In this document: positions 9,073-60,413 of the stretch, piece by piece
How positions within the stretch are numbered: position 1 is the first letter of the stretch
How the letters are laid out: each line of letters opens with the position of its first letter
DNA from: Gammaproteobacteria bacterium
GTDB lineage: Bacteria > Pseudomonadota > Gammaproteobacteria > Pseudomonadales > Azotimanducaceae
DNA: 64,000 nucleotides
Reading direction: 5' to 3'
Assembly: GCA_026708185.1 (NCBI GenBank)
Contig: JAPOVK010000003.1
Coordinates: 10,799-74,798 of the forward strand
Translations under genes and position numbers: made by a program
The notes under the pieces: model-generated
Databases searched by the model: none
What the model was told of the DNA's origin: nothing
The model's input: the letters and a program-made list of their open reading frames with translations, nothing else

Positions 9073-9077
9073 GCGGG

Positions 9078-11004: not shown

Positions 11005-11010
11005 TCGGGC

Positions 11011-11934: not shown

Positions 11935-11988
11935 CGAGTTTACCCCGCGAACTGCGCGTACGCGGCAGGTCGTTGTAGCATCACCGCC

Positions 11989-14099: not shown

Positions 14100-14286
14100 C
14101 CTGAGACGCCGCGCACCTTGCGCGGTGCGGCAGGATCGCGCCACATCTTCATCCCAAGCCACCATGGTCGCGATCCTTTTCCCGGCCGCGGGACGCCCAA
14201 TCCCAGCCGCAGGTTCCCTATGCGGGGCCGCCGACCTCGCTTGCCCCTCCGTACGGCGGAGTGCATCTCGCAGCGCGCAGAACGGT

Positions 14287-15228
14287 TCACTTGATCGTGG
14301 AGCGCAAGATGCCGTCTCCACTAACCGCCGGTGGTGACGGATTCGCCGCTGGCAACAGAATTTCGGCGTCGAAGTCTGCCGAGGGCAATGGGGTGAGCGT
14401 CAGCAGTGGCCCGTCACCTAAGGTCTCTGGCAGCGCGTGGGCACCGCAATTCGCCGGAAGTGCTCCCTCGCGGGACAGGCGACAAGTCCAAGCAGCTCCG
14501 CGTCGAAACCGAATGTGGACGCTGAAAACGTCATCCGCTGGCAACCAATCGACCATGGTTCGCCTGCGTCCCTCGGGAGAGCGTCTGGCGTGGAAGCCGC
14601 CGGTCAACATCAGAGCATAGTCGAAATCTCCCGCACCCCACTTTCTGGCAACGTTCGTCGCCATCAGTTCCTCGCGCGTGTTCGCCGGCTCCTCTTCCCC
14701 CTCGAACCACAGGGACGCGTCGTCGAAAGCGACGGTCTCCACCTCGAGCCCAGACCGGACCAACTCGCGAACTCGGGTCAGCAGACCAAGCATTGCCCGG
14801 CTGCTCCGCCCGTCGCGGGTCTCCTGCCACCACTGCTGTTCTGAGCCGGCGAGCGGACTCCCGTCGGCGCGCATGACCGGGCGTTCTGCAGTCGTAAGGG
14901 TGGCCACATCGAGCTCGCCCGCGACGAAGGCCGCGATGTCCTCGTCGAGCCAGCGGGGCAGTTCGATGCCCACGAGCACACGCCCGTCCACGGCGAGGTG
15001 GCAAGCGAGGTCCCCAACGAGCGCCGGTGACTCCTGCGTGCCGTGCGTCTCTCCGAAGACCACCACCCGGCCCCGCTGCCGCCGCAGCGAGTCGGCTGTG
15101 GGAAGAACGGCCTCCACGCATTCAAGGTCCTTGCCAGCTGCAGTCCCCGTCGGTGTCAAGAGACAGGCCGCGGCCAACAGTACCCCTGTCCCCTTCGACA
15201 CCGCCGCGCCCAGTTTCGCCTTTGTCAT
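14287..15228 (-). CDS. Secreted hypothetical protein (possible ChaN/erythromycin-esterase/Tiki-like fold)
   Basis: I chose the start at MTKAKLGAAVSKGTGVLLAAACLL (signal). VVVFGETHGTQESP resembles the GExH motif of that superfamily, but the match is weak. Confidence 0.4.
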   Translation of the reverse strand: MTKAKLGAAVSKGTGVLLAAACLLTPTGTAAGKDLECVEAVLPTADSLRRQRGRVVVFGETHGTQESPALVGDLACHLAVDGRVLVGIELPRWLDEDIAAFVAGELDVATLTTAERPVMRADGSPLAGSEQQWWQETRDGRSSRAMLGLLTRVRELVRSGLEVETVAFDDASLWFEGEEEPANTREELMATNVARKWGAGDFDYALMLTGGFHARRSPEGRRRTMVDWLPADDVFSVHIRFRRGAAWTCRLSREGALPANCGAHALPETLGDGPLLTLTPLPSADFDAEILLPAANPSPPAVSGDGILRSTIK

Positions 15229-15296
15229 CCAACCCCCGTGGCCGCCCCCTTTCCTGCCTGACGCCAACGCACACTGGCGAGAGGCAGTGCCTGGTG

Positions 15297-16283
15297 TCAA
15301 TCGCGATCTCGGGTTCGTTCGCCCTTTTCCGGTTGAACACTCCGGTAGGTCTGCGCGGCCCTCTCGAACGCCTTGCTACCCAACGACCGGGCGAGGTCCG
15401 CGCAGGCGAAGGCCAGCTTGGCGTCGTGTTCGTCGTCGATGGTCGCAGGTCGCGGTTCGGCCGCGGGGTCGAACCGCGGAGTGCCGACAGTGACGTATGC
15501 GGCCAGCAGTCCGGCGCTCAGCAGTCCGTCCGCCTCCATGCCGATCGCGTCGACGCACACGCCGAGCGCATGGGTGCCGGTCACCATGTGCAATGCAAAG
15601 AAGTCCTGCGTGTCGTTGAAGACTGCCAGACTCAGTTCCGCGAGACGTCGGCGGTTGTCCGGGCCGACGACGACGCGTCCCGTCAAGACGCCCGAAGCAA
15701 CCGTTGCGTTGTAGCGCCGCTCGAACGGTTCATCCAAAGGCGGGGCCGGAGGCGCCGACAGCGGCTCGTCGCCGTAACGCGCCCCGTCGGCCAAGGCCTG
15801 CAATGCCTGATCCGTGCCCGCGCTCGCAAGGTAGGCGAGCCCGGCGACGATTTCGGACGCGACGTCGAATCGAATGCCGTATGCGAGTCGAATGACCGGA
15901 TGGAAGGCGAAGCGGACCCAGCCGCTGAGGAGCCCGGGAAGCCAGTTCTCCAAGGTCGCCCGAGTCCCCACGCGCGCGACTTCCCGGTCGAAGTAAGCCA
16001 ACAGCGAGCCGTAAGCTCCGACGTCTCCCACCGCGCGTGCGATCTGCGTCGGCGGGTGCCGGAAATGCTGGACCGGCGGGTCGAGACGCTGCCGGTATCG
16101 CGTCGCGTACGACTCCAGCGCGTCCTGGCCAGCACCGTTCGCCCACATCGCCAAGAGGGCCATCGGCAGATGGTCCGACAGGTGTCCGCCGTAGTGAGGC
16201 CCGTGCTGGTTGCGGTGGGCGAGGAGCTTCTCGGAGAGCCACTCCGGCACGCGTTGACGGTCGCGCTGTTCGGTGTGCGCCAT
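15297..16283 (-). CDS. Questin-oxidase-like (DUF4243) family protein
   Basis: The N-terminal ...GGHLSDHLPMALLAMWANGA... is the pattern I associate with DUF4243. 328 aa. Confidence 0.5.
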   Translation of the reverse strand: MAHTEQRDRQRVPEWLSEKLLAHRNQHGPHYGGHLSDHLPMALLAMWANGAGQDALESYATRYRQRLDPPVQHFRHPPTQIARAVGDVGAYGSLLAYFDREVARVGTRATLENWLPGLLSGWVRFAFHPVIRLAYGIRFDVASEIVAGLAYLASAGTDQALQALADGARYGDEPLSAPPAPPLDEPFERRYNATVASGVLTGRVVVGPDNRRRLAELSLAVFNDTQDFFALHMVTGTHALGVCVDAIGMEADGLLSAGLLAAYVTVGTPRFDPAAEPRPATIDDEHDAKLAFACADLARSLGSKAFERAAQTYRSVQPEKGERTRDRD

Positions 16284-16384
16284 ATGTGCTCCTTGTCACA
16301 CCGATTAAGAAACCTTTTGATTTCCTAATTGTTCCGCCGTCAAGCTTGTTTCGCAACCTTTTTCTTGTCTTATTATTGACGGAC

Positions 16385-17029
16385 ATGGAAAAACACACCG
16401 ACTCGTCGGCCGATCGGTTGCTCCTGCGCCTGAAGGTCGAAGGACCGCAGACGACCCGCGCCCTCGCGAAGTGGCTGGGAGTCTCGATGCCGGCGGTACG
16501 CCAGCAAACCCGCCGGCTGGCGGACGAGGGCGTCGTCGCGATGACGGAGCTGCGCGGATCCGTGGGCCGGCCGCGACAGCGATGGTCGTTGACCCGCTTG
16601 GGTCATCGGCAGTTCCCCGACGCCCACGCAGATGCGACGGTCGCCCTGATCGCATCGATTCGCGACGCGCTCGGCGAAGGTGCACTCGGCTCGGTCATTG
16701 CCGACCGTTACCAGGCAACTCTAGTCACCTACCGGGAACGCATGAAAGGCGTCGAAGGGCTGGCGGAGCGGCTGGAACGGCTGCGCGCGATTCGCTCCGA
16801 AGAGGGATACATGGCCGAGGTACAGCCGGAGGGCGACGGCTTTCTCTTCGTCGAGCATCACTGCCCGATCTGCGCCGCCGCCGAGGCCTGTCAGGGCTTC
16901 TGCAGCAACGAACTGCGGCTGTTTCGCGAGCTGCTCGGCGACGAAGCTTCCGTGGAGCGCGTCGAATACCTGATCGTCGGCGACCGAAGGTGCGCGTACC
17001 GCGTCCGTAGTTTGGTGCGCCCTACGTAG
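16385..17029 (+). CDS. Winged-helix (ArsR/MarR-like) transcriptional regulator with C-terminal Cys cluster
   Basis: LLLRLKVEGPQTTRALAKWLGVSMPAVRQQTRRLADEGVV is the HTH. The C-terminus carries HHCPICAAAEACQGFCSNE...RRCAY. Start taken at MEKHTD (ATG 16385). Confidence 0.62.
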   Translation: MEKHTDSSADRLLLRLKVEGPQTTRALAKWLGVSMPAVRQQTRRLADEGVVAMTELRGSVGRPRQRWSLTRLGHRQFPDAHADATVALIASIRDALGEGALGSVIADRYQATLVTYRERMKGVEGLAERLERLRAIRSEEGYMAEVQPEGDGFLFVEHHCPICAAAEACQGFCSNELRLFRELLGDEASVERVEYLIVGDRRCAYRVRSLVRPT

Positions 17030-17795
17030 GGCGAGACCTAGACGCCCTCACGCGGTATTGGCCGTTCTCAAGCACCGGCACCACATCACTGCAGTCGAAG
17101 TCCACGGCGAGTTCCACATCCGCCGCGAAACCCCGGTCGATGATCTCCCGGGCCGATGCGCAGGACCGGACGAGTTCCTTCAAGTCGCCGCCGGCTGCCG
17201 CGAACATGCGCTCGGCGGAGGACGCCTCGGGCGACTTGGACCCGTCCAAGGCCGCGATGACCGCGCCGGCACCCAGCCAGTCCTCAAGCGACGGCCGCAG
17301 ACTGCCATCCGGCCATTTCTCCCCGCAGGGTACGACAGCGATCCGTGCACCGGAACGTGCGGCCACGCGGGCGACTGCCGTCGCGTTGCGCAGGCAGCCG
17401 GCGATCGTTCGAGTTCCGGGAGCGGCGAGCGAGATGGTCGCGCCGTTCGGCGAGGGCAGCACGAGCCGCGTACCGGCGGGAATCCCAACTAGGGAGGCGG
17501 GCGAGAGCGAATAGCCGCGGCCGTCGCGCGACGAGGCGAGGAGCGCGTCCGACCGGGCCGCAAAGTCCGACGCGGTGTCGTCCTTGAACCTGTACGGCAG
17601 CACGACGGCACCGCTGGCAGCCGCGACCTCGACGCAGGTCGTGAAGGAAAGCACGTCGACGACCACCACGACATCGCTTGCTGGCGCCAAAGCGGCGATA
17701 CCCGAAAGCCCCCACTCGCAACGCACGTCGAAGCCTTCCTGGACGTGGGCGGGCACCAAGCCCTCTGCCCTATGGGGCTTCTCATTCCGGCTCAA
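17022..17795 (-). CDS. 2-phosphosulfolactate phosphatase (ComB)-like family protein
   Basis: VVVVVDVLSFTTCVEVA resembles the ComB-family VIDVLRATT segment. It starts 3 nt downstream of rsmG. Confidence 0.5.
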   Translation of the reverse strand: MSRNEKPHRAEGLVPAHVQEGFDVRCEWGLSGIAALAPASDVVVVVDVLSFTTCVEVAAASGAVVLPYRFKDDTASDFAARSDALLASSRDGRGYSLSPASLVGIPAGTRLVLPSPNGATISLAAPGTRTIAGCLRNATAVARVAARSGARIAVVPCGEKWPDGSLRPSLEDWLGAGAVIAALDGSKSPEASSAERMFAAAGGDLKELVRSCASAREIIDRGFAADVELAVDFDCSDVVPVLENGQYRVRASRSRPT

Positions 17796-17798
17796 CCG

Positions 17799-18452
17799 TC
17801 ACTCCTCGTCGTTTGATTGCGTGCCATCTGTGCTCCCGGGATGCAGATCAGAGAGTGGCGGACGGCCGCGTGGGGTCATGCCTTGCACGCACCGGACTTC
17901 AGTCACCCATCCGCGGTCGACGGGGGCCTCATCGGCAATCCACCCAGCGTCGAATACCGGCGATTGCAGCCGCTCGCGGGACTGCAGCAACGCCGAAGCG
18001 CCGGACTTGAGCAGGTGACGGACGAGGGCCCAGGCCTGACGGGGCGGTGCGACCGCCCGAACCGTGACGATGTCGAACGCACTCGACGCTTCGTAACCAC
18101 GGATGTCCTGCGCCACGACGTCGACGTTCGGCAAGTCCAGTTCGATGACCACATGCTGCAGGAAGGCGCACTTGCGCGTGCTCCGCTCGATCAGGACGAC
18201 AGGCACGCCGGGGCGCGCGATGGCGAGCGGTATGCCGGGCAGCCCGGCACCGGAGCCGACATCGGCCAAGCGCCCGGTGACCCAAGGCAAAAGCGCGAGG
18301 CTGTCCGCCGTGTGTCGCTCGCGCAAATGCGGTATGTCGCCACGAGCGACCAGATTGGCGCGGGCATTCCAGCGCTGGACCAGGGCTTCGAACGCCGCAA
18401 ACTTGGCGGTCGCGCCGTCGGGCAGGGCGGCTGGTGCCGGCTCTTTGCGCAC
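17799..18452 (-). CDS. rsmG: 16S rRNA (guanine527-N7)-methyltransferase
   Basis: ...LADVGSGAGLPGIPLAIARP... SAM motif, 217 aa, immediately downstream of mnmG. Confidence 0.9.
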   Translation of the reverse strand: MRKEPAPAALPDGATAKFAAFEALVQRWNARANLVARGDIPHLRERHTADSLALLPWVTGRLADVGSGAGLPGIPLAIARPGVPVVLIERSTRKCAFLQHVVIELDLPNVDVVAQDIRGYEASSAFDIVTVRAVAPPRQAWALVRHLLKSGASALLQSRERLQSPVFDAGWIADEAPVDRGWVTEVRCVQGMTPRGRPPLSDLHPGSTDGTQSNDEE

Positions 18453-18455
18453 GTG

Positions 18456-20336
18456 CTACGCGCGGCGGCGTTCGCCTTCGGCACGCTTGGCGTGCACGAG
18501 GAGCAGGGACAGCGCGGCGGGGGTGACCCCGGGTACGCGCGCCGCCTGGGCGAGCGTGGCTGGCGCGCGCGTGCGCAGCTTTTCCTTCAACTCGTTCGAC
18601 AAGCCGGAGATTCGCGCATAGTCGAAGTCTGCGGCGAGCGCCACGTTCTCGTTGTCCTTCACGCGTGCGATTTCGTCGTCCTGACGCTGCATGTAGCCCG
18701 CGTACTTGGCCTCGATCTCGAGTTGCGCCAGGACGGCCTCATCCGGCGAATCGCCAACCTCCGCAGCGATGGCCTGCGCGTCGATGCCCGGACGCTTCAA
18801 GAGTTCAAAGAGCGATGTCGACTTGGCGATGGTCTCGCCGGTCGCCGTTTCCAAAGCCCGCGCCAAGTCGGTCCCCGGCGCAGCGACGATTTCCGCCAAA
18901 CGCTCGGCGCCGGCCTCCAAGGCCCGCTTTCTCGCGCTGAACACCCGCCAGCGGTCGTCGTCGACAACGCCGAGCGAACGCCCGATGGGCGTCAGACGCA
19001 GATCGGCGTTGTCTTGGCGCAAGCGCAGGCGGTACTCCGCGCGACTGGTGAACATGCGGTATGGCTCCGTCACGCCCAGGGTGACGAGGTCGTCGACCAG
19101 CACGCCGAGATAACCCTCGTAACGCGCGGGGCACCAAGCGTCCTTGCCATCGGCCGCGCGAGCCGCGTTGATGCCGGCGAGAAGCCCTTGCGCGGCCGCT
19201 TCCTCATAGCCGGTCGTGCCGTTGATCTGGCCCGCGAAGTACAGCCCCTCGATCACCCGCGTCTCCAGGCTCGAATGCAGGTCCCGGGGGTCGAAGAAGT
19301 CGTACTCGATGGCGTAGCCCGGCCGCGTGATGTGCGCGTTCTCGAAGCCGCGGATGCTGTTGACGGCCGCCAACTGCACATCGAAGGGCAAGCTGGTCGA
19401 GATTCCGTTCGGATACACCTCGTGGGTGTTGAGACCCTCGGGCTCCACGAAGACCTGGTGCTGCGTGCGATCGGCGAAGCGCACGACCTTGTCCTCGATG
19501 GACGGGCAGTACCGAGGACCCTCGGCCTCGATCACGCCAGCGTACATCGGCGAGCGGTCGAGACCAGAGCGGATGATGTCGTGGGTGGACGCGTTGGTGT
19601 GCGTGATGTGGCAAACGGTCTGGGCGGGATGGACATCCGGCGTGGATAGGAAGGACATCACGGGCCGCGGCTCGTCGCCGGGCTGCGTCTCCATCACGGC
19701 GAAGTCCACGCTGCGCCCGTCAAGGCGTGGCGGCGTCCCGGTTTTTAGGCGGTCCACGCGCAGCGGCAAGGCGCGCAGGCGTTCGGCCAACGCGTTGGCA
19801 GGCGCGTCGCCGGCGCGCCCGCCAGGCCCGTTCTCCAGGCCGATGTGGATGCGTCCGCCCAGGAACGTGCCGGTGGTGAGCACGACGCGGTCGGCCTCGA
19901 TGCGCAGCCCCATCTGCGTGTCGACCCCACGGATCCGGTCGCCGTCCACGACGAGATCCACCACCGATTGCTGGAAAACGGTGAGGTTGGCCTGGGATTC
20001 CACGATCGCACGCATCGCGTTTCTGTACAGGACGCGGTCGGCCTGGGCGCGCGTGGCCCGCACCGCCGGACCCTTGCTGGAATTCAGCGTGCGGAAGTGG
20101 ATGCCCGCGCGGTCAGCGGCGATCGCCATGGCGCCACCCAAGGCGTCGATTTCGCGGACCAGGTGGGACTTGCCGATGCCACCGATGGCGGGGTTGCATG
20201 ACATCTGGCCGATGGTTTCGATGCTCATCGTCAGCAGCAACGTCTTCGCGCCCACGCGGGCGGATGCCAGCGCGGCCTCGGCGCCGGCATGGCCGCCGCC
20301 GATGACGATGACGTCGAAACGTTGGGGGTGGTTCAT
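18456..20336 (-). CDS. mnmG: tRNA uridine 5-carboxymethylaminomethyl modification enzyme
   Basis: [68 protein letters not shown]... 626 aa from ATG 20336. The track ORF extends further upstream, which I regard as artefact. Confidence 0.95.
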
Positions 20337-20377
20337 GGCGCGTCCCCTCATGGGGCCGATGGCCAACGGGGCGCGGA

Positions 20378-21208
20378 TTATACGCTCGCTGCCTGCGCTG
20401 TCTTCGGCCAGGCCTCGAGGCCCGCGATCCGGCGACCCAGGGACGTCAACTCGGCAACCGGCCCCGGTTCCGGATCGCGCTGGCCCCTCACCTTCTGCCG
20501 CAAGGCCCAGCCGGGTGCCCGCTTCTCGCGGAAGGCCGCGGCGAGCTTGAGCCGTGCCGCTTCGTCCGCGGCCGGACTCATCGTGACGTATTGAACCCAG
20601 CGTGGCCGGGCACCGTCGTTGCGAGCCGACGAGTGCGGCATAAGCCGTGACCAGATCAGGAGCGACCCCGCCTTGCCGCCGACGCGCTTGGCATGCGGCG
20701 TTGCCTCGGCCAGCTCTTCGGTGATGCTGTCGCGATGCGTCTCCAGCCAATCCGGCAGGTCGCGGTAGATCTCGGGCGCGCAGCAGAATGCACCCTGATG
20801 GTCGTCGGTGTCGGTCAGGTAGACCAGGCCTTGATAGCCAGCGACATCCTTTGGCTGGCGCGGATCCGCATCCCAATGCAGCTTGCTGATCCGCACGGTT
20901 TCGTCGCCCGCGGGCGGCTTGAAGGAGGCACGGTCGACGCTCGACCACAGGGCGCGGCTGCCGTAGAGCTCGGCGAAGATCGCATGCACCGCGGGGTGTT
21001 GGCGGACCTCCCAGAGCGCCGGGTGATGGTGCAGCGGGACGATTCCGTGGCCATGGGCGACACCCCAGGTCGACGCGTCGCCCGGGTCGACATGCAGGAA
21101 CGACGCCACGGCCTCGATGACCGCTTCGCAGAGTGGCTTCGGGACCACGCCGTTCACCACCGCGTAGCCCCGCTCGGCCAACGCGTCTTTCGTCGCCTTC
21201 GTCAACAT
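20378..21208 (-). CDS. PhyH-family dioxygenase-like protein
   Basis: [23 protein letters not shown]... with HWDAD and later ...[10 protein letters not shown]. Its ATG shares 1 nt with the TGA of the upstream VIT-vWA gene. Confidence 0.65.
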
Positions 21209-23490
21209 CAATCCACGGTCGTGCTGTAGCGCACCCCATCCGGTACCGGCACCGCCTGGTAGACAGTAACACCGTGGTCGCCGGCCGTTCGCCCCCGCGA
21301 ATCCACCGCCACGAACGACGTATAGCCCGACATCAACTGATGCGCGAGCGCCGTGGTGGTGATCGTGTCCTTGAGTTCGCCGCCCGGGTCGCCAGCCCAA
21401 GACACCCGATCCGCCAATTCTGCGATCCGTTCCCGCGCCCAGACCTTGGCCAAGGATGGCCTGTCAGCGTGGTCCGAACCGACCACGACGCTCAGAGGTT
21501 CGCCCCCGGCTCTTGCAGAGACAGTCACGCTTCCCGGTTCCCCGGTGAACGTCCCCGTCACCACCAGCGGGCGACCGACAAAGAGGGCCGGCGTGGCGCG
21601 CGGATACGCGTCGGCGACGCGCATGTCGCCCCAGTCGATCGCGATGTCGGTCAGCACGGGATGGCTGATCCGATCCAGGAAGTCGCCCATGACCACGCGC
21701 GCCGAGTCGTTCAGTCCTAGGTAGGCCACCACGCCGCGGCCGGTCTTGGCCATGCGTTCGAGCAGATAGCGATTGACCGACGAGCCGACGCCGAAGCTGA
21801 AGATCCGCGAAGCGCCGAGACGGCGATGAATCGCCCCGAGGATGTCCGACTCGTTGCCGATGTAGCCGTCCGTCATGAACGACACGAAACGCAGCCGTGT
21901 CGGATCGTGGGGGAAGTCAAGCGCCGCTTTGACGCCCTCGACCATGTACGTCCCACCGCCGCTCGTGAGATTCGCCAGGTAGGTTCGAGCCCGCGCGATG
22001 TTCGCAGGCGTGGCGCGAACCGGTGCGGCCCCGAAGTGGCTCGCCCCTTCGGAGAACCGGATAATCTGGAACGTGTCGTCGCCGCCGAGCCGGTCCAGCG
22101 CCGTGGCCACGGCCTCCTTCGCCTGCTCGAGCGGCCGGCCCTGCATGGAGCCGGAGGCGTCGATGACGAACACCAACTCCAAGGGTTGTCGCGCAGCGTC
22201 GTTTTGCGCACCGGGCGGGATCAGCATCAGCGAGAAGAAGCCTTTGCCGCTGTCCGCATCCCGGTGGGTGAGCAGCTTGGACTTCACCGTTTCACCGGCA
22301 ACGCGGAAGTCCAGGACGAAGTCCCGGTTCGGCAGTGTCTTTTCGTTCTCGAGCGACACGCTCGCGAGCGTCGACGACAGCCGCTCGATAGCGACACCAT
22401 GCGTGGATTTCAGATCCTCGATCTGGACTCCGGCGTCGATGTTGAGGTTGATGCTGATGTCGTGACCGGAGCGTTCCGTCGGCGCCAGGTACTCGACAGC
22501 GGCGGTGGTGTCGCGACGACTTCCACGGCGGACGGCGCTAAGCGGATCCGGATGGTCCGGCGGATTGAAGCGTGGACCGACGACGGTGGGAAACACGAAG
22601 GAGTACCAGCCATCCTTGTACGCTAGGGTATGGAAGTAGGTGATATCGACTTCGATGGTCTTGCCGGGCTCGATGTTCGCCACCTTCTGCTCGAATACGT
22701 TGGGCCGTTGCTGGACGAGCAGGCTCGCGCGATAGCCCTGCGCCCGGGCCTGGCGGTAGATCTCCTCGGCCTCTTGCTTCTCGCGAACGATGCCGCGGAT
22801 GGTGCGTTCGCCGATCACCATGAGGAACTCGCTGACGGCCGCTTTTTCCGGCAGAGGGAACAGGTAGACGGCCTCGATCTTGGTGTCGAACGGGTTTCCG
22901 AATCGCTGGTTGACGGCAACCGTGCTGATGTGACCCTCGATGGCCGCTTCCACCGCCGTGTGCTCGAGTGGCAAGGGGACGTACTGGGGTGCGCCGATGG
23001 GCGCCCTTGCCGGGAAACTCGCCAGCATTGTCCCTGTGCCAACTTGGTGCTCGTCGTACTGCGCGCGTGTGCCAGGTGCACTGGGCCCGAACTGGCGGGC
23101 GTTGGCGGGCGCGGAGACGCCACGCTGGAAGGTTTGATCGAAAACCACATCCCCCAGTTCGGCCTCCGACAGGGACACGTCAATCGAGTCCACCACACGC
23201 CCGTGACCAGCCCGAATGTAGCTGCCGGTTACGACCATCTCGCGCGCCGCGCTCACGTCGGCACCCTGCTGGGGGGCAGGCGCAGTCGGCTTGGCGATCA
23301 CCCAAACTTCCTGGTCCTGCGGCGCATTAGCGCGAGCCGATGGCAGTTGGTCGGGGTCGGATGCCGGCACGGGTGGAGGTCCAGGCGCGCGATACTGACA
23401 CGCGCCCAGGCCGACGAGTACGCCAATCACGCTCGTCGCAGCCCCAGCCACGATCAGGCAGCGGGTTCTTCTGTCCATCCGTTCCTCCAT
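21208..23490 (-). CDS. VIT + von Willebrand factor A domain lipoprotein
   Basis: Lipobox [11 protein letters not shown] region ...[43 protein letters not shown].... v[18 protein letters not shown]. The start may instead be Met 23478. Confidence 0.85.
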
Positions 23491-49477: not shown

Positions 49478-51673
49478 GTGAAACCGCTCGCTGCCGCGCC
49501 GCTTGCCCTCCTGGTTCTCGCCGCTTGCGGACAGGAACGTGGATCCGACGCCACCGCCCCGGACCGCGCCGTCGAGATTCGCGCCGCCACCGACACCGTC
49601 GACGGCGAGCGCATCGGCGCGGCCAACGAACCGCAAAACTGGCTCTCCCACGGCCGCACCTACGACGAGCAGCGGCACAGCCCGCTCACCGCCGTCGACG
49701 CCGAGAACGTGGGCGAACTCGGACTCGCCTGGTACTGGGACACCGGCGACGTGCGTGGCCTCGAAGCCACACCCATCGTCGTCGACGGCGTGCTCTTCAC
49801 AACCGGTACTTGGAGCCGCGTCTACGCCAACGACGGGCGCACCGGCGAACTCATCTGGCAGTACGACCCGCAGGTGCCGCGCGAATGGGGCAAGTACGCG
49901 TGCTGCGACGTGGTCAACCGCGGCGTTGCCGTGTGGAAGGGGCGGGTATTCGTCGGCACGCTGGACGGTCGGCTGATCGCGTTGGACGCCGGGACAGGCG
50001 AGGTGACCTGGGAGACGCTGACCATCGACCAGGAGCGGCCGTACACGATCACCGGTGCACCCCGGGTGGTGAAAGACATGGTGGTGATCGGCAACGGCGG
50101 TGCCGAGTACGGCGTGCGCGGCTACGTCACCGCCTACGACTGGGAAACGGGTGTCGAGCGGTGGCGGTTCTACACCGTGCCAGGCGACCCCTCCGCCCCG
50201 TTCGAAAGTCCCGCGATGGAGATGGCTGCCGAGACATGGGTCGGCGGCAACTGGTGGGAAGTCGGTGGCGGCGGCACGGTATGGGATTCCATGGCCTTCG
50301 ATCCCGAACTCGACCTCCTCTACGTCGGCGTCGGCAACGGCTCGCCGTGGAACCGCGAAATCCGCAGCCCCGGCGGCGGCGACAACCTCTTCCTCGCCTC
50401 CATCGTCGCGCTCGATCCGGACGACGGAGCGCTGGCCTGGCACTACCAGACCACGCCGGGTGAGACGTGGGACTACACGGCGACGCAGCACATGATCCTC
50501 GCCGACCTCGAGATCGGAGGCAGCCTGCGCAAGGTGATCATGCAGGCGCCGAAGAACGGGTTCTTCTACGTACTCGACCGGACCGACGGCACGTTCATCT
50601 CGGCCAAGCCCTACGTCGCCGTGAACTGGGCAAGCGGCATCGATCAGCAAACCGGCCGGCCGGTCGAGGAACCGGGCGCACGCTACATCGACGACGCCGC
50701 GTTCGTGTTTCCCTCCGCACACGGTGGCCACAATTGGCATCCGATGGCGTACAACCCGGACACGGAATTCGTCTACGTCCCTGCTCTGGACATGGGATTC
50801 CCCTACGGGCAACACGGCGATTTCGTCTACCAGCCGGGCGAAATGAACCCGGGCATCGACATCGGCGCGTTGCTCCCGCCCAAGACGCCCGATGAACGCG
50901 TCGCGATGCTGCAGTCCATGAAGGGCCACCTGGCGGCCTGGGATCCGGTCAACCAACGGGAGGCGTGGCGCGTGCAGCACGCGACGACCTGGAACGGCGG
51001 CGTGTTGTCGACCGCTGGCAATCTCGTCTTCCAGGGCCGTTCCGACGGCGTCTTCGCGGCCTACGCCGCAGACACGGGAGATCTCAAGTGGGAGATGCCC
51101 GTGCACACCGGGATCGTGGCGGCACCGGTGAGCTACGCCATCGACGGCGAGCAGTACATCGCGGTGGCGGCGAGTTGGGGCGGGTCGTTCACACTCTTCT
51201 CCGGCGTGCCGCGACACCGCGGCAACATCCTCAGCCAGGGCCGCATCCTGGCCTTCAAGCTGGGTGGCGAAGCCGAGCTCCCGGAACCCGCGATCACGTA
51301 CGTCAACATCCCGGAGCCGCCGGCCATCGAGGCCACCGCCGAGGAGATCGACCGCGGCGAACTGCTCTACCACACCTGGTGCACGCCATGCCACGGCGCC
51401 GGCGTCACCTCCGGCAGTTCGGTGCCGGACCTCAAGTACCTGCCGGCGGCGTCCCACTCCCGGTGGGACCTCATCGTGCGCCAAGGCGTCTACGCCACGG
51501 TGGGCATGCCGGGTTTCGACCACGTGCTCAGCGAATCGGATTCCGAAGCGGTCCACGCCTACGTCGTCAACGAGGCGAAGGCGGCGATCGCGTTCTGCGA
51601 GTCGGAATACCCCCAACGCTATCCCGAACTGTTCGCCACGGCGTGCACGAAGGCCATCGTCGTCAGCTATTGA
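49478..51673 (+). CDS. PQQ-dependent alcohol dehydrogenase with C-terminal cytochrome c domain (quinohaemoprotein type), lipoprotein-type signal
   Basis: Signal/lipobox LALLVLAACG, propeller W-motif repeats, the vicinal Cys pair YACCDVVNRG typical of quino-ADH, and CTPCHG (CxxCH) near the C-terminus. Confidence 0.9.
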   Translation: MKPLAAAPLALLVLAACGQERGSDATAPDRAVEIRAATDTVDGERIGAANEPQNWLSHGRTYDEQRHSPLTAVDAENVGELGLAWYWDTGDVRGLEATPIVVDGVLFTTGTWSRVYANDGRTGELIWQYDPQVPREWGKYACCDVVNRGVAVWKGRVFVGTLDGRLIALDAGTGEVTWETLTIDQERPYTITGAPRVVKDMVVIGNGGAEYGVRGYVTAYDWETGVERWRFYTVPGDPSAPFESPAMEMAAETWVGGNWWEVGGGGTVWDSMAFDPELDLLYVGVGNGSPWNREIRSPGGGDNLFLASIVALDPDDGALAWHYQTTPGETWDYTATQHMILADLEIGGSLRKVIMQAPKNGFFYVLDRTDGTFISAKPYVAVNWASGIDQQTGRPVEEPGARYIDDAAFVFPSAHGGHNWHPMAYNPDTEFVYVPALDMGFPYGQHGDFVYQPGEMNPGIDIGALLPPKTPDERVAMLQSMKGHLAAWDPVNQREAWRVQHATTWNGGVLSTAGNLVFQGRSDGVFAAYAADTGDLKWEMPVHTGIVAAPVSYAIDGEQYIAVAASWGGSFTLFSGVPRHRGNILSQGRILAFKLGGEAELPEPAITYVNIPEPPAIEATAEEIDRGELLYHTWCTPCHGAGVTSGSSVPDLKYLPAASHSRWDLIVRQGVYATVGMPGFDHVLSESDSEAVHAYVVNEAKAAIAFCESEYPQRYPELFATACTKAIVVSY

Positions 51674-51773
51674 CAGCGGCGGGGTTGCGCTAGGGTGGGA
51701 GTGCTGTTGTCCAAGAGCAGCGACGCGAAGGCACAGAAGTAGGTCTGCGATAGCGGACTTGGAGGTGAGCGAG

Positions 51774-52586
51774 TTGTTGGGTGCTGGCCGAACTGGAACT
51801 CTGGGCGTAATCCGTCGGCTTGATCGGCGCTCTGCCGGACCCTTTGGAACAAGCGGTCACGTAGCTATCGCTGCCGGGGTGGTGTTCGCCGGAGTCCCAC
51901 TACTGTCTGGCCATGCCTTCGCCTGCGTTCTGGTAGGTGCGGTCCTTTGTGGATTCCCGGAAGCAGTTGGGCGATGCGGAGTCTCGCACGTCGGCATGAC
52001 CGCGCCACTTTTTCCCCGCAATCGCGCTCTTTGGTTGAAGTGTGTTACCGCATACACGATTGCAGGATGCGCGACTTCATACGGATTGGGGTTGGTTCTC
52101 GTGTCTGTCGGATCGGCGGTGGGGGAAGCCGGCGCTCACGTCCTCATTGGGACGTCAGGCCTTGCGGCGCTTGCCATGATGCTCCGGGCGATGCAGCTCG
52201 TGCGATTCGAAGTCCCGCAGTGCGACCGGCAGACACATAAGAGGTGGCTTGGCCAGTTCAGCATGCCCACGGCGGTTGGGATGTGGGGAGCGCACATCGG
52301 GCTCGCTGTGACTACGGTGATCGCATACGGCGGCCTGTATCCAGTGTTGTTGCTGGCTGCAGGACTCTCGAACGGTCACGGGGAGTGGCTGCCTGTGGTG
52401 TTCTGGCTTGGCCGAACAGCCGCCATGTGGTTGGCGCCAGTCGTGGTAGGGAGCACTAACGGGTCGGACTACGTCGACGCGCTCATGGAGTCCCGACCGA
52501 CATTCCGCCACGTCGCAGCCATCGGACTCGCGATGCTCGCATCCGGTGCAGGAGTATATGTTGTGTCCTACCTCACTCAGACATGA
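51774..52586 (+). CDS. Polytopic (about 6-7 TM) membrane protein, unassigned family; first gene of the lower-GC operon
   Basis: This is the downstream part of track ORF 51264..52586. TTG 51774 lies 8 nt after GGAGG (51761-51765). Several intramembrane Cys (FACVLVGAVLCGF, TIAGCATSY) and a loop VPQCDRQTHKRW. The start is uncertain. Confidence 0.45.
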   Translation: MLGAGRTGTLGVIRRLDRRSAGPFGTSGHVAIAAGVVFAGVPLLSGHAFACVLVGAVLCGFPEAVGRCGVSHVGMTAPLFPRNRALWLKCVTAYTIAGCATSYGLGLVLVSVGSAVGEAGAHVLIGTSGLAALAMMLRAMQLVRFEVPQCDRQTHKRWLGQFSMPTAVGMWGAHIGLAVTTVIAYGGLYPVLLLAAGLSNGHGEWLPVVFWLGRTAAMWLAPVVVGSTNGSDYVDALMESRPTFRHVAAIGLAMLASGAGVYVVSYLTQT

Positions 52587-52592
52587 GAGCGC

Positions 52593-53162
52593 ATGAGCGT
52601 GGATGTCCTGACAGTTCATCTGGCTCTATGGGCGGTCGTCGCTGTACAAGGGCTGACTATCGCCTTCCTCTTCTACCGTTACTCGCAGCTGCACGCCCTT
52701 GCTACCCAGCCAAGCGTCGGACAAGGCCGGCGGTCACCCGGGGCGGAGATCCCGAGCTTCGAGGCGACGAACGGGGCCACCGGAGAGATCGTGTCGAGCA
52801 ACGACCTGATCGGAGCTAGGCATTTCATCTTGGCCGTGGAGGCTGATTGTGCCGACTGTCGCGAGTTGATCCGCCAGATCGCTGAGGGCGAGGCAGATCG
52901 TGCGCGGTTCCCGCATATGCTCGTGTATTGTCAAGGATCGCCAAGAGGCTGCGCCCGAGTAAAGGATCGCTTAGAGCCGGACAGTTCACCGTTTTGGGTG
53001 CAACGCGAGCAGGATGTCGCCGAGCTGCTCGGCATCCAGGCCTTTCCTGCCTTGGTCGAGGTCGATCCGGCCATGCATCTGGTTGGCTACTCGTATCCGA
53101 CAACCAGAAGACACCTCAACTCGATCATGGGGTCCGTCTCGGAAGCAAGGAGCACCGAGTGA
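52593..53162 (+). CDS. Membrane-anchored thioredoxin-fold (TlpA/ResA/MauD-like) protein with CxxC
   Basis: N-terminal TM LALWAVVAVQGLTIAFLFY, then IPSFEATNGATGEIVSSNDLIGARHFILAVEADCADCRELI (CADC at the canonical position) and FPALVEV (cis-Pro region). Confidence 0.68.
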   Translation: MSVDVLTVHLALWAVVAVQGLTIAFLFYRYSQLHALATQPSVGQGRRSPGAEIPSFEATNGATGEIVSSNDLIGARHFILAVEADCADCRELIRQIAEGEADRARFPHMLVYCQGSPRGCARVKDRLEPDSSPFWVQREQDVAELLGIQAFPALVEVDPAMHLVGYSYPTTRRHLNSIMGSVSEARSTE

Positions 53163-53773
53163 AGTGGTACGTTGCCTGTATCGCCATCGCGGCGGCTGTT
53201 TACTTGGTCCATCGGGCAATGGTCGAGACAATCCGCACCATGAGACGGCTTTCACGGATGCTCCCAGATCCGGGACTTCAGTCGAAGCCAGCCACCAGCG
53301 AACTCAGCGTTGGTTTGGGGATGATGATTCCTGAGTTCGAAGCGACGGAGGTCGTCACAGGCCGCACCTTCGGCACCGCGTCGATTGTTGGGAAGTCCGT
53401 GACATTGGCATTCATCCGTGTATCACAACTGACGGAGCTGAGCAGGCATGTCTTGGGTCGTTTTCTGGATCAATGCTGGCTACGGTCGGACGACAAAGTG
53501 TACGTCTTTCTTGTCGATGCCGTTGACGACGACGTAGACGATGGAGCAACGGAAGTATCTAGACACCTGCGCCTAGATGAGCTGGAGAACCGCGATGACA
53601 TCGTACTCGCGAGAAGCCGAGAGGTGAGCCTTTCCACGGAGCTGAACGTACACCAGACTCCGTGGGCCTTACATGTCGACAAAGGCGGGATCGTGGATCA
53701 GGTAGGCACATTACTCCAAGGGGAAGCGACATCTCGTGAGCCCAGAGCGAATCCGAATGGTCGCTTGGGCTGA
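53159..53773 (+). CDS. Membrane-anchored thioredoxin-fold paralog lacking the CxxC (SQLT instead)
   Basis: GTG 53159 overlaps the upstream TGA (GTGA), with AAGGAG 6 nt upstream. TM WYVACIAIAAAVYLV. IPEFEATEVVTGRTFGTASIVGKSVTLAFIRVSQLTELSRHV aligns with the preceding gene. Confidence 0.55.
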   Translation: MKWYVACIAIAAAVYLVHRAMVETIRTMRRLSRMLPDPGLQSKPATSELSVGLGMMIPEFEATEVVTGRTFGTASIVGKSVTLAFIRVSQLTELSRHVLGRFLDQCWLRSDDKVYVFLVDAVDDDVDDGATEVSRHLRLDELENRDDIVLARSREVSLSTELNVHQTPWALHVDKGGIVDQVGTLLQGEATSREPRANPNGRLG

Positions 53774-54272
53774 TTTGGCTGCGCTCGCCCAACTGGCGAC
53801 GGGGCTGTGCTTTGTCGTAGCAGCCGTCGCGAAGGCACGCGATATGTCTACCTTTCAGGACCAACTCGCGGAGATGGCTACTGCTCTACCGGTTCCAGCC
53901 TTGCTAGCGGTTCTGGTCGTCGCCGTCGAGGTGGTTTTGGGGCTCTGCTTCGTTACCGGGCTCGCAATCTTGGTCGCCGCGCCAGTGGCACTTCTCGTGG
54001 TGGTCGTGTTCGGAACAGGCAGCGTTGTACTGGCTAACAGGTCGCCAAATCGACGACAGTGTCTGTGTTTCGGGATAAACGGCGTCGACACGGCTTCGGC
54101 GGCCGGCGTGGTACGGCTGGGTCTGTTGGCGGGCGGGATAATGGCGACCGCCTTGATCTCTCCCATCGACGGATTTCGGATTCCAGGCCTTGCCGAGTTG
54201 GTGTCAGCCGCCGTAGTCGTTCTGTTGGGTGCATCCGTGCTTCAGTTCGTTGACTTGGCGGTTTATCGGTAG
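53736..54272 (+). CDS. MauE/DoxX-family redox-associated membrane protein
   Basis: Four hydrophobic segments and the CLCFG motif (RRQCLCFGINGV) that I associate with MauE-family proteins. Alternative start at ATG 53757. Confidence 0.62.
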   Translation: MSPERIRMVAWADLAALAQLATGLCFVVAAVAKARDMSTFQDQLAEMATALPVPALLAVLVVAVEVVLGLCFVTGLAILVAAPVALLVVVVFGTGSVVLANRSPNRRQCLCFGINGVDTASAAGVVRLGLLAGGIMATALISPIDGFRIPGLAELVSAAVVVLLGASVLQFVDLAVYR

Positions 54273-54324
54273 AGCGAGGACGGCGAAGAAGATCGGATAG
54301 GCTCAATGCAGGGAGAGTACAGTG

Positions 54325-54690
54325 ATGGAAGGTTCCGGCAGGCGCGGTTTCCTGCGTCGTAGTTTTTTGGTCGTTGGCGCGTTTGTCGCCGGAGTGCTCG
54401 GTGTGGAACCGGCCCACGCCAACAGGCATACCCGGTGCTGCGACCTTTGTCGAACGCCCGCCCAATGCCCGTTTCCATTCGCGGACTGGAAGGACGAGTG
54501 TGAGAGCTGCCTAGTCTGGACGTGTTCTTGGCCCCGGGGCGGGGGCGGTGAAGGATACCAAGTGACATATGCATGCTTCGAGTGCTATTCCACCGTCGAG
54601 TCCGGCAACTGCCGGGACGACGTCGGGTGTGACAATGCCCTTTGCTCGCGTTACCAGCTCTTGAGCGGTCCTTATCCGAGTCCATGTTGA
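54325..54690 (+). CDS. Tat-signal, cysteine-rich small secreted protein (13 Cys in ~89 mature residues)
   Basis: GGGAGAG lies 7 nt upstream of ATG 54325. MEGSGRRGFLRRSFLVVGAFVAGVLGVEPAHA has a twin-arginine motif (RRxFL) and an AHA cleavage site. The mature part is NRHTRCCDLCRTPAQCPFPFADWKDECESCLVWTCSWPRGGGGEGYQVTYACFECYSTVESGNCRDDVGCDNALCSRYQLLSGPYPSPC. Confidence 0.65.
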   Translation: MEGSGRRGFLRRSFLVVGAFVAGVLGVEPAHANRHTRCCDLCRTPAQCPFPFADWKDECESCLVWTCSWPRGGGGEGYQVTYACFECYSTVESGNCRDDVGCDNALCSRYQLLSGPYPSPC

Positions 54691-57284
54691 CCTTGTCGGC
54701 TACACCAATGCGAGCCGCGACGATGTTATTGGTCGCAATTGTCGGCACGCAAGTGTTGGCTGATCGTGTGGTCGAGGTCCAACTCTCAGGCTCCGACGCG
54801 CAGCACGGCACTTGGGTTGGCGTCTTAAGCGAGCCGACTCGATCAAGCGCCGTGGCGCTTAGTTGGGCGCACACGGAAGCGGACACGCTCAGCGTGGATG
54901 TGCCAGACACGGGCGCTGCCAGGATTGTGGCCGTTCGACATGGCATTGTGTCGACGCGACGCATCGCCACGGACGAGCGTGGACCGGTGTACCTGCGGTT
55001 CGAGCGTGGCTTCTCCGTCACCGGCACTGTACGCGACATCCACGGACTCGCCATCGCTCAAGCCAACGTTGTCCTCTCGGCGACTGGAAGGACTGAGTTC
55101 GACCTGCCAAGGTTCGTGTGGCCTCAATGGCTGACAGATAAGGATGGAGTCTTCAAAGCAATTGGCTTGGCCGCCGGTCGATACACGGCTCTGGCGAACG
55201 CGGAAGGTCACGTTATGCTCGACGACATCGAGCTTGAGATCCCTGAAGCAGCCGACCGCGTCGAGATAACGATGGCGCCAGCCTTCCACGTTGAGGGCGG
55301 TGTGGTCGGTGCGATCGACTACCAACCGGTGGTCGGAGCCGAGGTGGAGGCACATGCCAGCGGCCCCGTTCGGATTGTTGAAACAGACTCACATGGTCGA
55401 TTCCGGGTTGGGCCTTTCGCCGTCGGGCAGGAGGTCCGTGTAGCTGCGCACAGTAACGATGGCCGGTCCAGCGACACCGTGCACCTGTCCAAGCCCCAGG
55501 AAAGGCTTGTTCTGAGGCTTAACGAAGGCGTGAGGGTCACGGGTGCCGTCGCTGACGGGACGAACAATAAGGTCGTGACCGGATTCGTACTCACCGCCTA
55601 TGCCAACGGCGATGTGCTCGGGTCGTTTCCTTTCCGTGACACCGGAGGCAAGCTCGACGCCGTGGTGGACTGGCGAACTGATACTCTGGCGGTAGAGGTG
55701 CCAGGCTACTCAGCATGGAGTGCCCGCGCCCAGTTCACTGCGGGCGAGCACTTCGATCTAGGACGGATCCTGGTCGAACCACACCGGCCGGTGTCCGGAC
55801 TCGTCATCGACGGCTCGACGGGAACGCCCATCGCCGGTGCGACGGTCACGCGTCACGGTGTTTACCTTTCGTACACGCAGCGCCTTGGCGGAGAAACCAC
55901 GATCACGGATGGCGCCGGCACCTTCCAGCTCTCCAACGCGAGTAGCGACGGGTACTCTCTGAGTGTTTCCGTAGATGGGTACGCGCATAAGACCATCGAT
56001 TTCCGGGGAACCGCCGACCACGTCACGATCGAACTGGAGAGGGGTGGAACGGTAATCGGGACGTTGAGCACGACCGATGGGACTCCAATAGGGGGAATCC
56101 TGACACTCAGCCCAAGTGGTGAGACGCGACTCCAAGGCATTCGGGAGCGTGCCGCGAGCGATGGTCGTTTCGAGTTCACGAACGTCCGAGCGGGCGTCTA
56201 CCGGCTGTTCGCGCGATCAACAGGCAGTGTGCCGCGCAACCGCTTGGTCACTGTCACCGACGGGCGCCCGACACGGGTCAATGTGGCGCTAGATGCAGGT
56301 CTGCGGATGACCGGAGAACTGAGCGGACTGAGCGACGGTGAGCGCGCTAGGTTTCTGTTTTCGCGCGGCGGTGAGCACGTGCATGTCGTATCAGGGCGTC
56401 ACGGCAATGGACGGTTCGTCGTGGAAGGCGTTCCAAGCGGTCCGTTGCAGGTAACCGCGGCGACATCTATAGGACGGAAGATGACCAAGGTGGTCGATGA
56501 CGAAACCGGTTACGCGGGTGTGGACTTTGCGTTCGGCGGCGGATCCGTTTTGAGGGGTGTCGTCCGTGCGGGCGACACGCCAATGTCCGCAATCGCGGTG
56601 ACGGTCGTGCGGCAGGAAGGCGAAGCTTTTTCGAGTTCGACCAACACGGACAGGGCCGGGTTTTACGAACTGCGCGGGTTGCCGGCGGGCGATTACGTTC
56701 TGACGGTGCAGCAACGGTCGGCCACGTTCCATGACAGGTTCGACGTGGCGGTCGCCGGGGACACGGTATTCGACGTGCCGCTAACGCCGTTGACCATCAG
56801 CGGCGTCGTGCGGTCATTCCGAAGCGTGTACGACGGACGTATCAGGGCTACGAAACTGACTGAGGCAGGCATGATGTCCATCGTGTCGCGAATCAAGAGC
56901 GGCGGGTCATATCGTTTCGACGGCTTGGCGGCAGGCCGGTGGCGCATCACGGTGCTGGAGCCTTTCGCCGATGGCATCACACAGTCTGTCGATCTCCAGG
57001 GTGTCGTGTCCGAATTTGACTTCACCTTGACGCCGAGCGGGACGCAGGCCATTTGGATTGCACCGGACCTCGCAGGCGATCGACCGCCCATGTTGGAGGT
57101 GGTTGTTGAGAGCGGGGATCTGGCGGGGGAGGTCATCGCCTACAGTCTCGACAATGGGGCAAATAGGCAACTGCCTTTAAGCTTGGTGGGGCAGCGACTT
57201 CGATTTGAGGCGGGTGGCTACCTTCCCCAGACTGTCGAGAGTTGGGGTGGTGGAACTTTGGAGATCGAGCTTCGACAGCGTTGA
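54684..57284 (+). CDS. Secreted protein built from multiple carboxypeptidase-regulatory-like (CarboxypepD_reg) beta-sandwich repeats
   Basis: Signal MRAATMLLVAIVGTQVLA. Recurrent (V/I)xGxVxDxxGxPIxGAxV...DGxFxxxxLxxGxYxL units, for example VSGLVIDGSTGTPIAGATVT, VIGTLSTTDGTPIGG and LRGVVRAGDTPMSAIAVTV...AGFYELRGLPAGDYVL. ATG 54684 overlaps the upstream stop (ATGTTGA). Confidence 0.62.
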   Translation: MLTLSATPMRAATMLLVAIVGTQVLADRVVEVQLSGSDAQHGTWVGVLSEPTRSSAVALSWAHTEADTLSVDVPDTGAARIVAVRHGIVSTRRIATDERGPVYLRFERGFSVTGTVRDIHGLAIAQANVVLSATGRTEFDLPRFVWPQWLTDKDGVFKAIGLAAGRYTALANAEGHVMLDDIELEIPEAADRVEITMAPAFHVEGGVVGAIDYQPVVGAEVEAHASGPVRIVETDSHGRFRVGPFAVGQEVRVAAHSNDGRSSDTVHLSKPQERLVLRLNEGVRVTGAVADGTNNKVVTGFVLTAYANGDVLGSFPFRDTGGKLDAVVDWRTDTLAVEVPGYSAWSARAQFTAGEHFDLGRILVEPHRPVSGLVIDGSTGTPIAGATVTRHGVYLSYTQRLGGETTITDGAGTFQLSNASSDGYSLSVSVDGYAHKTIDFRGTADHVTIELERGGTVIGTLSTTDGTPIGGILTLSPSGETRLQGIRERAASDGRFEFTNVRAGVYRLFARSTGSVPRNRLVTVTDGRPTRVNVALDAGLRMTGELSGLSDGERARFLFSRGGEHVHVVSGRHGNGRFVVEGVPSGPLQVTAATSIGRKMTKVVDDETGYAGVDFAFGGGSVLRGVVRAGDTPMSAIAVTVVRQEGEAFSSSTNTDRAGFYELRGLPAGDYVLTVQQRSATFHDRFDVAVAGDTVFDVPLTPLTISGVVRSFRSVYDGRIRATKLTEAGMMSIVSRIKSGGSYRFDGLAAGRWRITVLEPFADGITQSVDLQGVVSEFDFTLTPSGTQAIWIAPDLAGDRPPMLEVVVESGDLAGEVIAYSLDNGANRQLPLSLVGQRLRFEAGGYLPQTVESWGGGTLEIELRQR

Positions 57285-59765: not shown

Positions 59766-60413
59766 TCAGTTCTCGTCGACCTGTCTGTGCTCACATACGT
59801 ACGCGAACGTCGCCTCGGCAATACGCGCACAGGCCGACTTCACCGCAGCCCAGTCGTGCCACTCCGGTGCGAGGTGCCGGTACTCCGAAAGCTCGGTGCT
59901 GTCGAGATCGTAGGGCAGCGGAGTCGCCAACTGGGCCTGTAGCTGTTGCAGGGCCGATTCGCCGCTCTCCTGCGGGTAGAACTCGTCAAAGGGCACCAGC
60001 GCCTGTCCGGTCGCCTCTTCGCCAAGGAGGTGGGCCAGCGCGACAAAGTCCAGATAGTCCCGAGTTGCGTTGCGGCGGAGTATCAACACGGCCTTGATGC
60101 GCAGGATCTCGGCCTTGGTCGGAATGGTCAGCGGCACGCCTCGATGGTCAAGCGTCGTCGTCTCGAGCGGCCGGTCGCGGATCAGTTGCCGGACCCCGGT
60201 TTCGATGCCGTCCAGGCTGCCGAGGATAAGCACCGGTTTGCGCACTCGGGCCGTTCGCCAGCCTGCCACGTCCTCGAGCTGCTGAAGCACCGCTTCGAAC
60301 CGGTCGCGGAGATCCGTCAGGACGTGATCCGCGTCGCGCGAGAGGCGATGCTCGGCATGTATTGCCGCAGCCGTCCCGCCGAGGCGCACCGCGTCGGGCA
60401 GAACCCGCTGCAA
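59766..60413 (-). CDS. AbiEii/AbiGii-like nucleotidyltransferase toxin family protein (type IV TA)
   Basis: The N-terminal VRLGGTAAAIHAEHRLSRDADHVL resembles the GGTAL...R.S.DLD nucleotidyltransferase motif of PF08843 proteins. At 215 aa it is short for the family. Confidence 0.5.
   Translation of the reverse strand: MQRVLPDAVRLGGTAAAIHAEHRLSRDADHVLTDLRDRFEAVLQQLEDVAGWRTARVRKPVLILGSLDGIETGVRQLIRDRPLETTTLDHRGVPLTIPTKAEILRIKAVLILRRNATRDYLDFVALAHLLGEEATGQALVPFDEFYPQESGESALQQLQAQLATPLPYDLDSTELSEYRHLAPEWHDWAAVKSACARIAEATFAYVCEHRQVDEN

Follow-up and report, generated by a model that had tools for sequence, protein, structure and literature searches.

We analysed a stretch of 64,000 nucleotides (the window) from the metagenome-assembled genome (MAG) GCA_026708185.1, a gammaproteobacterium of the Azotimanducaceae (contig JAPOVK010000003.1, positions 10,799 to 74,798), and followed up a small Cys- and Trp-rich gene at 54325-54690. 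As judged from its conservation, this gene founds an orphan family carried within a coherent mobile module, a six-gene island that also encodes a MauE-family membrane protein, a thioredoxin-fold protein and an 866-aa repeat protein. We see about an even chance that the product is a six-disulfide mini-protein with twin-arginine translocation (Tat)-type export, oxidised by the DsbB/DsbA-like pair of the island and acting with the 866-aa protein.

The open reading frame (ORF) starts with a GTG at 54322 or an ATG at 54325, runs to 54690 on the + strand and codes for a 121-aa precursor. The initial annotation, made from the sequence alone, had described an 89-aa mature part containing 13 Cys and 3 Trp, Cys spacings of CC-x2-C-x5-CP, C-x2-C-x4-C, C-x2-C and C-x5-C-x4-C with a further C-terminal Cys, and the motifs ADWKDEC, CLVWTCSWP and GGGGEG, and our translation matches all of this exactly. 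The parts of the gene are given below, where L003 is one of five homologous loci that we label L001 to L005.

54310..54317, + strand: Shine-Dalgarno-like AGGGAGAG, read from the sequence, 7 nt 5' of the ATG of the small ORF and kept in L003
54325..54420, + strand: Tat-type leader (M)EGSGRRGFLRRSFLVVGAFVAGVLGVEPAHA, with an RR-x-F-L motif and an invariant AHA site
54421..54690 including the stop, + strand: mature 89-aa Cys-rich mini-protein, with 12 invariant Cys, W56 and W66, a GGxGG turn and a C-terminal ...P-x-P-C

The Cys count alone does not decide whether this is a real gene, because spurious six-frame ORFs in the window, which is 66% GC, reach 10-11 Cys per 89 aa. A chance ORF in the GC-rich stretch that separates MauE from the large gene would also agree with the GenBank record of the MAG, from which the small gene is absent, since MauE (MCY4011216.1) and the large protein (MCY4011217.1) have consecutive accessions. 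What argues against a chance ORF is the way the sequence is conserved. Four further metagenomic loci have in-frame homologues in the corresponding place, the indels of the family are all in-frame, and 12 Cys are invariant even though synonymous sites are saturated in the comparison with L002. Against L001, the ratio of nonsynonymous to synonymous substitution rates (dN/dS) lies at 0.24-0.33, with 0.32 overall and 0.24 in the mature part, for which the estimates span 0.24-0.27, and a ribosome-binding site is present. On this conservation pattern, which we consider decisive, the small gene is genuine and the chance-ORF reading effectively refuted. A terminator-like hairpin, GGCGCGGTTTCCTGCGTC (54341-54358), followed by the T-run GTAGTTTTTT, lies within the leader codons (54341-54368) and is probably a chance match. 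Our promoter and terminator scan returned sites at or below chance, with fewer terminator-like sites than in shuffled sequence.

The family is very small. A word-indexed search of 5.8 billion proteins returned two relatives, P0001 (93%) and P0002 (67%). An exhaustive HMMER search with a profile of the mature part against 1.84 billion cluster representatives gave two real matches and added one new member, P0003, with 42% identity in the mature part; a further match, P0004, was rejected as a spurious repeat protein. A pattern scan of 185,579 GTDB species genomes found no further relatives, and a scan of JGI metagenomes with the small-protein alignment found none. The family thus stands at four distinct sequences, all of them metagenomic. 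The small protein matches no family in Pfam, NCBIfam or PADLOC, and a sequence-profile search of the PDB gave no match at E up to 10.

The initial annotation had asked whether a homology search would reveal a family, and which Cys and Trp would prove invariant in it. A family does exist, and in the alignment its four members, whose mature parts fall to 41-42% identity, all keep 12 of the 13 Cys as well as W56 and W66, although one of the 12 is displaced by three alignment columns in P0003. C63 and W70 are not invariant: the other members have Y, I or V in place of C63, and P0003 has I in place of W70. The invariant Cys are even in number and the 13th is variable, which we count in favour of six disulfides. 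AlphaFold2 (AF2), run on the four-sequence alignment, predicts a largely beta mature part in which residues 29-56 (mature numbering) form a long hairpin, at low confidence (best pLDDT 62, with the five models disagreeing at 39-62). A Foldseek search of the PDB with this model gave nothing below E=0.7, which we take as uninformative rather than negative. For a small, beta-rich, extracytoplasmic protein held by six predicted disulfides, we consider the chances evenly balanced.

The leader, GRRGFLRRSFLVVGAFVAGVLGVEPAHA, fits the S/T-R-R-x-F-L-K consensus with a Gly-rich h-region, and its RRGFL motif, its VVGAFVAGVxGV h-region and its AHA site are invariant in the family alignment. The initial annotation had called it a textbook Tat leader with an AxA site. 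The RR motif and the invariant AHA agree with this. With the Tat hidden Markov model (HMM) TIGR01409 (cutoff 16.7) the small protein scores 11.4 bits, below the cutoff, while its homologue P0002 scores 17.5 bits, above it. The leader also aligns with the RR leader (SRRxFL...) of precursors of MauA, the methylamine dehydrogenase (MADH) light chain (hhalign, E=4e-4). A literature search on Tat export of the MADH light chain returned nothing directly useful. Compared with L002, the leader is 79% identical, versus 41% for the mature part, and its dN/dS is 0.07-0.12. Compared with L001, the leader DNA hardly differs over about 60 nt, though the synonymous divergence (dS) of the mature part is 1.3. 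The conserved leader stretches lie at 54340-54420 in the window, 10016-10100 in L001 and 225-310 in L002.

The small gene belongs to a group of six genes on the same strand:

51765..52586, + strand: orphan polytopic membrane protein, island gene 1, with ~5-6 hydrophobic segments; also a gene call on the identical Tara scaffold L004
52593..53162, + strand: membrane-anchored thioredoxin-fold protein with CADC, ResA/TlpA/DsbE-like (from AF2 and Foldseek)
53159..53773, + strand: protein with a transmembrane (TM) anchor and without CxxC, whose GTG start overlaps the stop of the previous gene by 4 nt
53757..54272, + strand: MauE-family membrane protein (PF07291), DsbB-like, with an alternative GTG start at 53736
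54325..54690, + strand: the small protein gene, the Cys/Trp-rich ORF with an RR leader
54684..57284, + strand: 866-aa partner protein (Pfam PF13620, E=1e-43, five stretches)

All six genes (51765-57284) have a third-codon-position GC content (GC3) of 0.63-0.70, versus 0.87 for the flanking pyrroloquinoline quinone (PQQ) alcohol dehydrogenase and 0.84 for the flanking S9 peptidase. From this low GC3 relative to the flanks, we infer that the six genes are one horizontally acquired island. We found no convincing flanking direct or inverted repeats at its edges, and no tRNA or integrase.

MauE scores 48.6 bits against PF07291 (cutoff 27). Its TM3 leads into a loop with QCLCFG, in which F-G comes after the CXC, and it has K26 at the end of TM1 and E57 in TM2. 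MauE proteins have been found to replace DsbB in E. coli, with the CXC motif essential, and their active site is described as a CXC in the TM3-TM4 loop, usually followed by F-G, with a conserved Lys in TM1 and a conserved Glu in TM2 (bioRxiv 10.64898/2026.03.05.709764). The MauE of the window has the profile match and each of these residues. MADH requires both MauD and MauE for its six disulfides, MauD being the DsbA-like carrier that introduces them (bioRxiv 10.64898/2026.03.05.709764).

The CADC protein has only weak, sub-threshold matches in Pfam, to Thioredoxin_2 and AhpC-TSA. Its AF2 model (pLDDT 63, low confidence) has the thioredoxin beta-alpha-beta order with the CxxC at the start of helix 1, and the top Foldseek matches are all ResA, DsbE, TlpA, Etrx or SdbA (E~1e-4, probability 1.00). 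This fold, the placing of the CxxC where helix 1 begins and the N-terminal membrane anchor make it look like a thioredoxin of the TlpA/ResA/DsbE type. It gave no match to the MauD equivalog TIGR02661 in the NCBIfam scan at E up to 10. The product of 53159..53773 has SQLT where the CxxC would stand. It is possibly related to the CADC thioredoxin, in a short N-terminal stretch only: a local BLASTP alignment around IPxFEAT reaches E=3e-4. The same gene is present in L003 and L004, and it has no family match in the Pfam and NCBIfam scans.

Because MauE has QCLCFG, K26 and E57, the gene for the protein with 12 invariant Cys is directly preceded by what looks like a complete DsbB/DsbA-like pair. The thiol-redox neighbours pointed out in the initial annotation are thus borne out, by a MauE with CXC-FG and a CADC thioredoxin in the same island. 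With DsbB/DsbA, VKOR/Trx and generalist MauE pairs, this pair shares a quinone-linked membrane oxidase with redox-active Cys in a periplasmic loop and a thioredoxin-fold CxxC carrier. Unlike in those systems, it is carried on a mobile island together with a single candidate client of extreme Cys content, which suggests a dedicated rather than a housekeeping system.

The 866-aa downstream neighbour named in the initial annotation is there as described, and its ATG overlaps the stop of the small gene by 7 nt (ATGTTGA). The same 7-nt overlap is found in L002, the most distant locus. The protein has no Cys at all, a Sec-type signal, an N-terminal domain of ~85 aa and ~9-10 CarboxypepD_reg (transthyretin-like) beta-sandwich repeats, and its gene has a dN/dS of 0.33 against L001. 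A GTDB scan with the large-protein alignment gave generic CarboxypepD_reg proteins only (24-39% identity), none of them with an adjoining Cys-rich ORF bearing an RR leader. In the GenBank record, the start of the large protein is 101 codons late (765 aa versus 866) and MauE has 142 aa versus 171.

The pair of small and large genes is kept in the window and its identical scaffold L004, in L001, in L002 and in L003, which is every locus that reaches that far. L004 carries an identical small protein, and the order thioredoxin, CxxC-less protein, MauE, small gene, large gene is repeated on L003 and L004. In L002, a 60-aa fragment upstream of the pair was considered as a MauE, but this could not be shown (E=0.26). 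L001 (a 5.8-Mb contig) also carries a second CarboxypepD_reg paralogue of 790 aa just upstream (6804-9176), with several FG-GAP/ASPIC genes around the locus. In L005, a truncated large-protein homologue of 507 aa (7288-9903, 68% identity) directly follows an rve-family integrase, which suggests that this copy was disrupted by a mobile element.

The reading to which we give an even chance would work as follows. The small gene would be translated from its own Shine-Dalgarno sequence, with translational coupling to the 866-aa gene through the ATGTTGA overlap. The RRGFLRR leader would direct the precursor to the Tat translocon, with cleavage after the invariant AHA, as the motif and the HMM suggest. 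In the periplasm, the 12 invariant Cys would form six disulfides with the membrane-anchored CADC thioredoxin as donor, a client relation drawn by analogy with MauE, MauD and MauA. MauE would then re-oxidise the thioredoxin through its CLC-FG loop and pass the electrons to quinone. The knotted mini-protein would bind the Cys-free repeat protein as a small subunit, cap or ligand, as the conserved adjacency and the coupling suggest; a bound small subunit or cap appears the most likely role. More speculatively, a Tat leader could mean that the chain folds before export and is then "stapled", sparing mis-pairing among 12 Cys. Of the three options offered in the initial annotation, the disulfide-knotted ligand or scaffold for the 866-aa protein is thus the best supported, by the 12 invariant Cys, the MauE and CxxC thioredoxin genes and the 7-nt overlap. 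That annotation had also remarked that Tat export and periplasmic thiol-redox neighbours pull in different directions. Both signals are indeed present, but the conflict has a precedent in the MADH light chain, which has an RR leader, six disulfides and MauE/MauD.

Several observations weigh against this reading. Tat normally exports cofactor-loaded or pre-folded proteins, and a disulfide-only protein usually takes the Sec route. In L001, all that is left of MauE (9338-9999) is a remnant with a frameshift and a 5' truncation, fused behind a Fic-like fragment, and there are no thioredoxin genes, yet the small and large genes are intact; therefore, either the oxidase pair is not indispensable or the L001 copy is decaying. 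MauE has been reported as a generalist, and its place beside the small gene could reflect a role for the cell at large. For neither thioredoxin-like anchor does the positive-inside rule give a clear orientation, leaving their topology in doubt, and binding to the partner is argued from synteny alone. The low AF2 confidence for the small protein (pLDDT 62) and the empty Foldseek result count here as well. Finally, the leader is conserved beyond the mature part, more than a mere export signal would account for; signal peptides of the ordinary kind change quickly. Docking to a chaperone or maturation partner may be a further role of this leader, or recombination may have homogenised it.

The system that most resembles the module is MADH, and the likeness bears on another option of the initial annotation, a subunit with a tryptophan tryptophylquinone (TTQ) or cysteine tryptophylquinone (CTQ)-like cofactor. 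Here W56 and/or W66 would be oxidised and cross-linked and the 866-aa protein would serve as the heavy subunit. Like the MADH light chain, the small protein is a small exported subunit with an RR leader, 12 Cys and two key Trp, invariant in our family; its gene follows those for MauE, with the same CXC-FG site, and a CxxC thioredoxin-fold protein; and it has a much larger co-expressed partner. Two island genes of no recognised function also count in its favour. By eye, the MauA hairpin after the TTQ residue Trp57 (SW..SC.NP.DG.SYLIAY) is also similar to W66..C68.WP..GG..YQVTY, and the best local hhalign match, although non-significant, falls on this hairpin. However, homology to MauA on the basis of this WxxC..P..G..YxVxY likeness is rejected by profile-profile statistics. 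The profile of the small family aligned with a 117-sequence MauA alignment gives E=0.38 and a probability of 0.16% for the mature part, and E=0.49 with a single MauA sequence. The small protein has no match to PF02975 (MauA and aromatic amine dehydrogenase (AADH) light chain) at E up to 10, and the PDB profile search with the family found neither MauA, AADH nor QhpC, so there is no detectable sequence relationship in the mature part. The proteins also differ in size (89 aa versus ~131 aa) and, although Cys and Trp counts are alike (12 and 2), in Trp spacing, W56 and W66 being 10 residues apart versus 51 in MauA. The partner here consists of Cys-free beta-sandwich repeats rather than a 7-bladed propeller, the thioredoxin lacks a MauD-model match, and no MauG, amicyanin, MauF, MauJ, MauM or MauN was recognised.

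A scan for CxxCH in the 64-kb window and the 20-kb L001 locus found no MauG-like ORF with two such motifs; the motifs present are one in the haem domain of the PQQ alcohol dehydrogenase and one in a short ORF that we did not count as a gene. MauG could be elsewhere in the genome. Among the island ORFs scanned there was no match to a propeller heavy chain (MauB), a radical-SAM protein (QhpD-like) or a flavoprotein (LodB-like), and the only propeller nearby is the PQQ alcohol dehydrogenase, which lies outside the island. QhpC, which carries CTQ and Cys thioether cross-links, is likewise a small Cys- and Trp-containing, heavily cross-linked subunit of a periplasmic complex, but it has 4 Cys only, and no genes for QhpD, the protease QhpE or the flavoprotein QhpG were found near the small gene. 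All this makes a TTQ/CTQ-like subunit very unlikely. We regard as an equally long shot a variant in which the protein is the small subunit of a hitherto unrecognised periplasmic or surface complex with a Trp/Cys cross-link or cofactor on W56/W66 made without MauG. The unusually conserved leader would then dock to the orphan membrane protein and the CxxC-less protein, and the module would be a second, independent "MauA-like" solution with a beta-sandwich-repeat heavy chain. By its profiles and gene content, the module looks instead like a new variation on the theme of MauE/MauD and client, and the small protein does not belong to the MauA family.

Cofactor-containing proteins are the classical cargo of Tat, and a mini-protein whose 12 Cys ligate, for example, three [4Fe-4S] clusters or a Cu(I)-thiolate core assembled in the cytoplasm, which the initial annotation had also suggested, would explain the Tat-type leader, the 12 invariant Cys in 89 aa and the persistence of the small gene in L001 without a working MauE or thioredoxin. 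The thiol-redox neighbours would then hold these thiols in the state required, or act on other clients. The copper storage protein Csp1 (13 Cys, a four-helix bundle) is among the closest known cases, since it shares the Tat leader, the ~13 Cys and the small size of a periplasmic protein. The small protein, however, has no CxxCxxCxxxCP ferredoxin motif, the Pro after C49 is not conserved in the family, and the Fer4, HiPIP, Rieske, DUF326/Csp and metallothionein profiles of Pfam and NCBIfam gave no match at E up to 10. Families for haem or any other cofactor were likewise not matched in these scans. It has no CxxxC helical register, and its low-confidence model is beta-rich rather than a Csp-like helical bundle. 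The island has no recognisable gene for cluster assembly or for a Tat chaperone, and the adjoining Dsb-like pair of oxidising MauE and CxxC proteins suits disulfides better. We therefore consider a metal-cluster protein unlikely. Slightly less probable in our view is a secreted effector, that is, a disulfide-rich bacteriocin, toxin or signalling peptide, with the large protein as receptor, immunity factor or carrier. A small protein predicted to be knotted and exported, a rare family and a horizontally acquired island would all fit, as would the mobile-element scars near the homologues (the rve integrase in L005, the Fic fragment in L001) and an AbiEii-like gene 5 kb downstream of the small gene. 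Against an effector, no island protein matches PADLOC, we recognised neither a dedicated exporter or protease nor an immunity-like small membrane gene, and tight coupling to a large, Cys-free secreted protein is more typical of subunits of one complex.

If the six-disulfide reading is true, this would be the second case, after the MADH light chain, of a twin-arginine leader on a six-disulfide protein with a private MauE/thioredoxin pair. It would bear on how a heavily disulfide-bonded protein uses the folded-protein export pathway, and it would provide a small natural client with which the DsbB-like role recently proposed for MauE could be examined. Given the rarity of the family (four metagenomic sequences), its wider biological importance is likely narrow. 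The skipping of a conserved 121-aa gene in the GenBank record is an annotation gap in its own right.

The first gene of the island (51765..52586) matches no family in Pfam, NCBIfam or PADLOC. Its start is uncertain, gene callers giving 273, 155 or 136 aa, and its GC3 is 0.65. Directly upstream of the island, at 49478-51673, is the quinohaemoprotein PQQ-dependent alcohol dehydrogenase (TIGR03075, E=6e-191). It ends in a cytochrome c domain at the C-terminus, its GC3 resembles that of the host, and it probably has nothing to do with the island. On the - strand at 59766-60413, about 2.5 kb past the downstream end of the island, is a weak match (E=0.001) to an AbiEii-like nucleotidyltransferase toxin (type IV toxin-antitoxin). 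At 1747-21272, we noted origin-proximal housekeeping genes (ATP synthase subunit c, ParB and MnmG/GidA) together with a P450, a beta-lactamase-fold protein and PhyH dioxygenases, and the window probably lies near the chromosomal origin.

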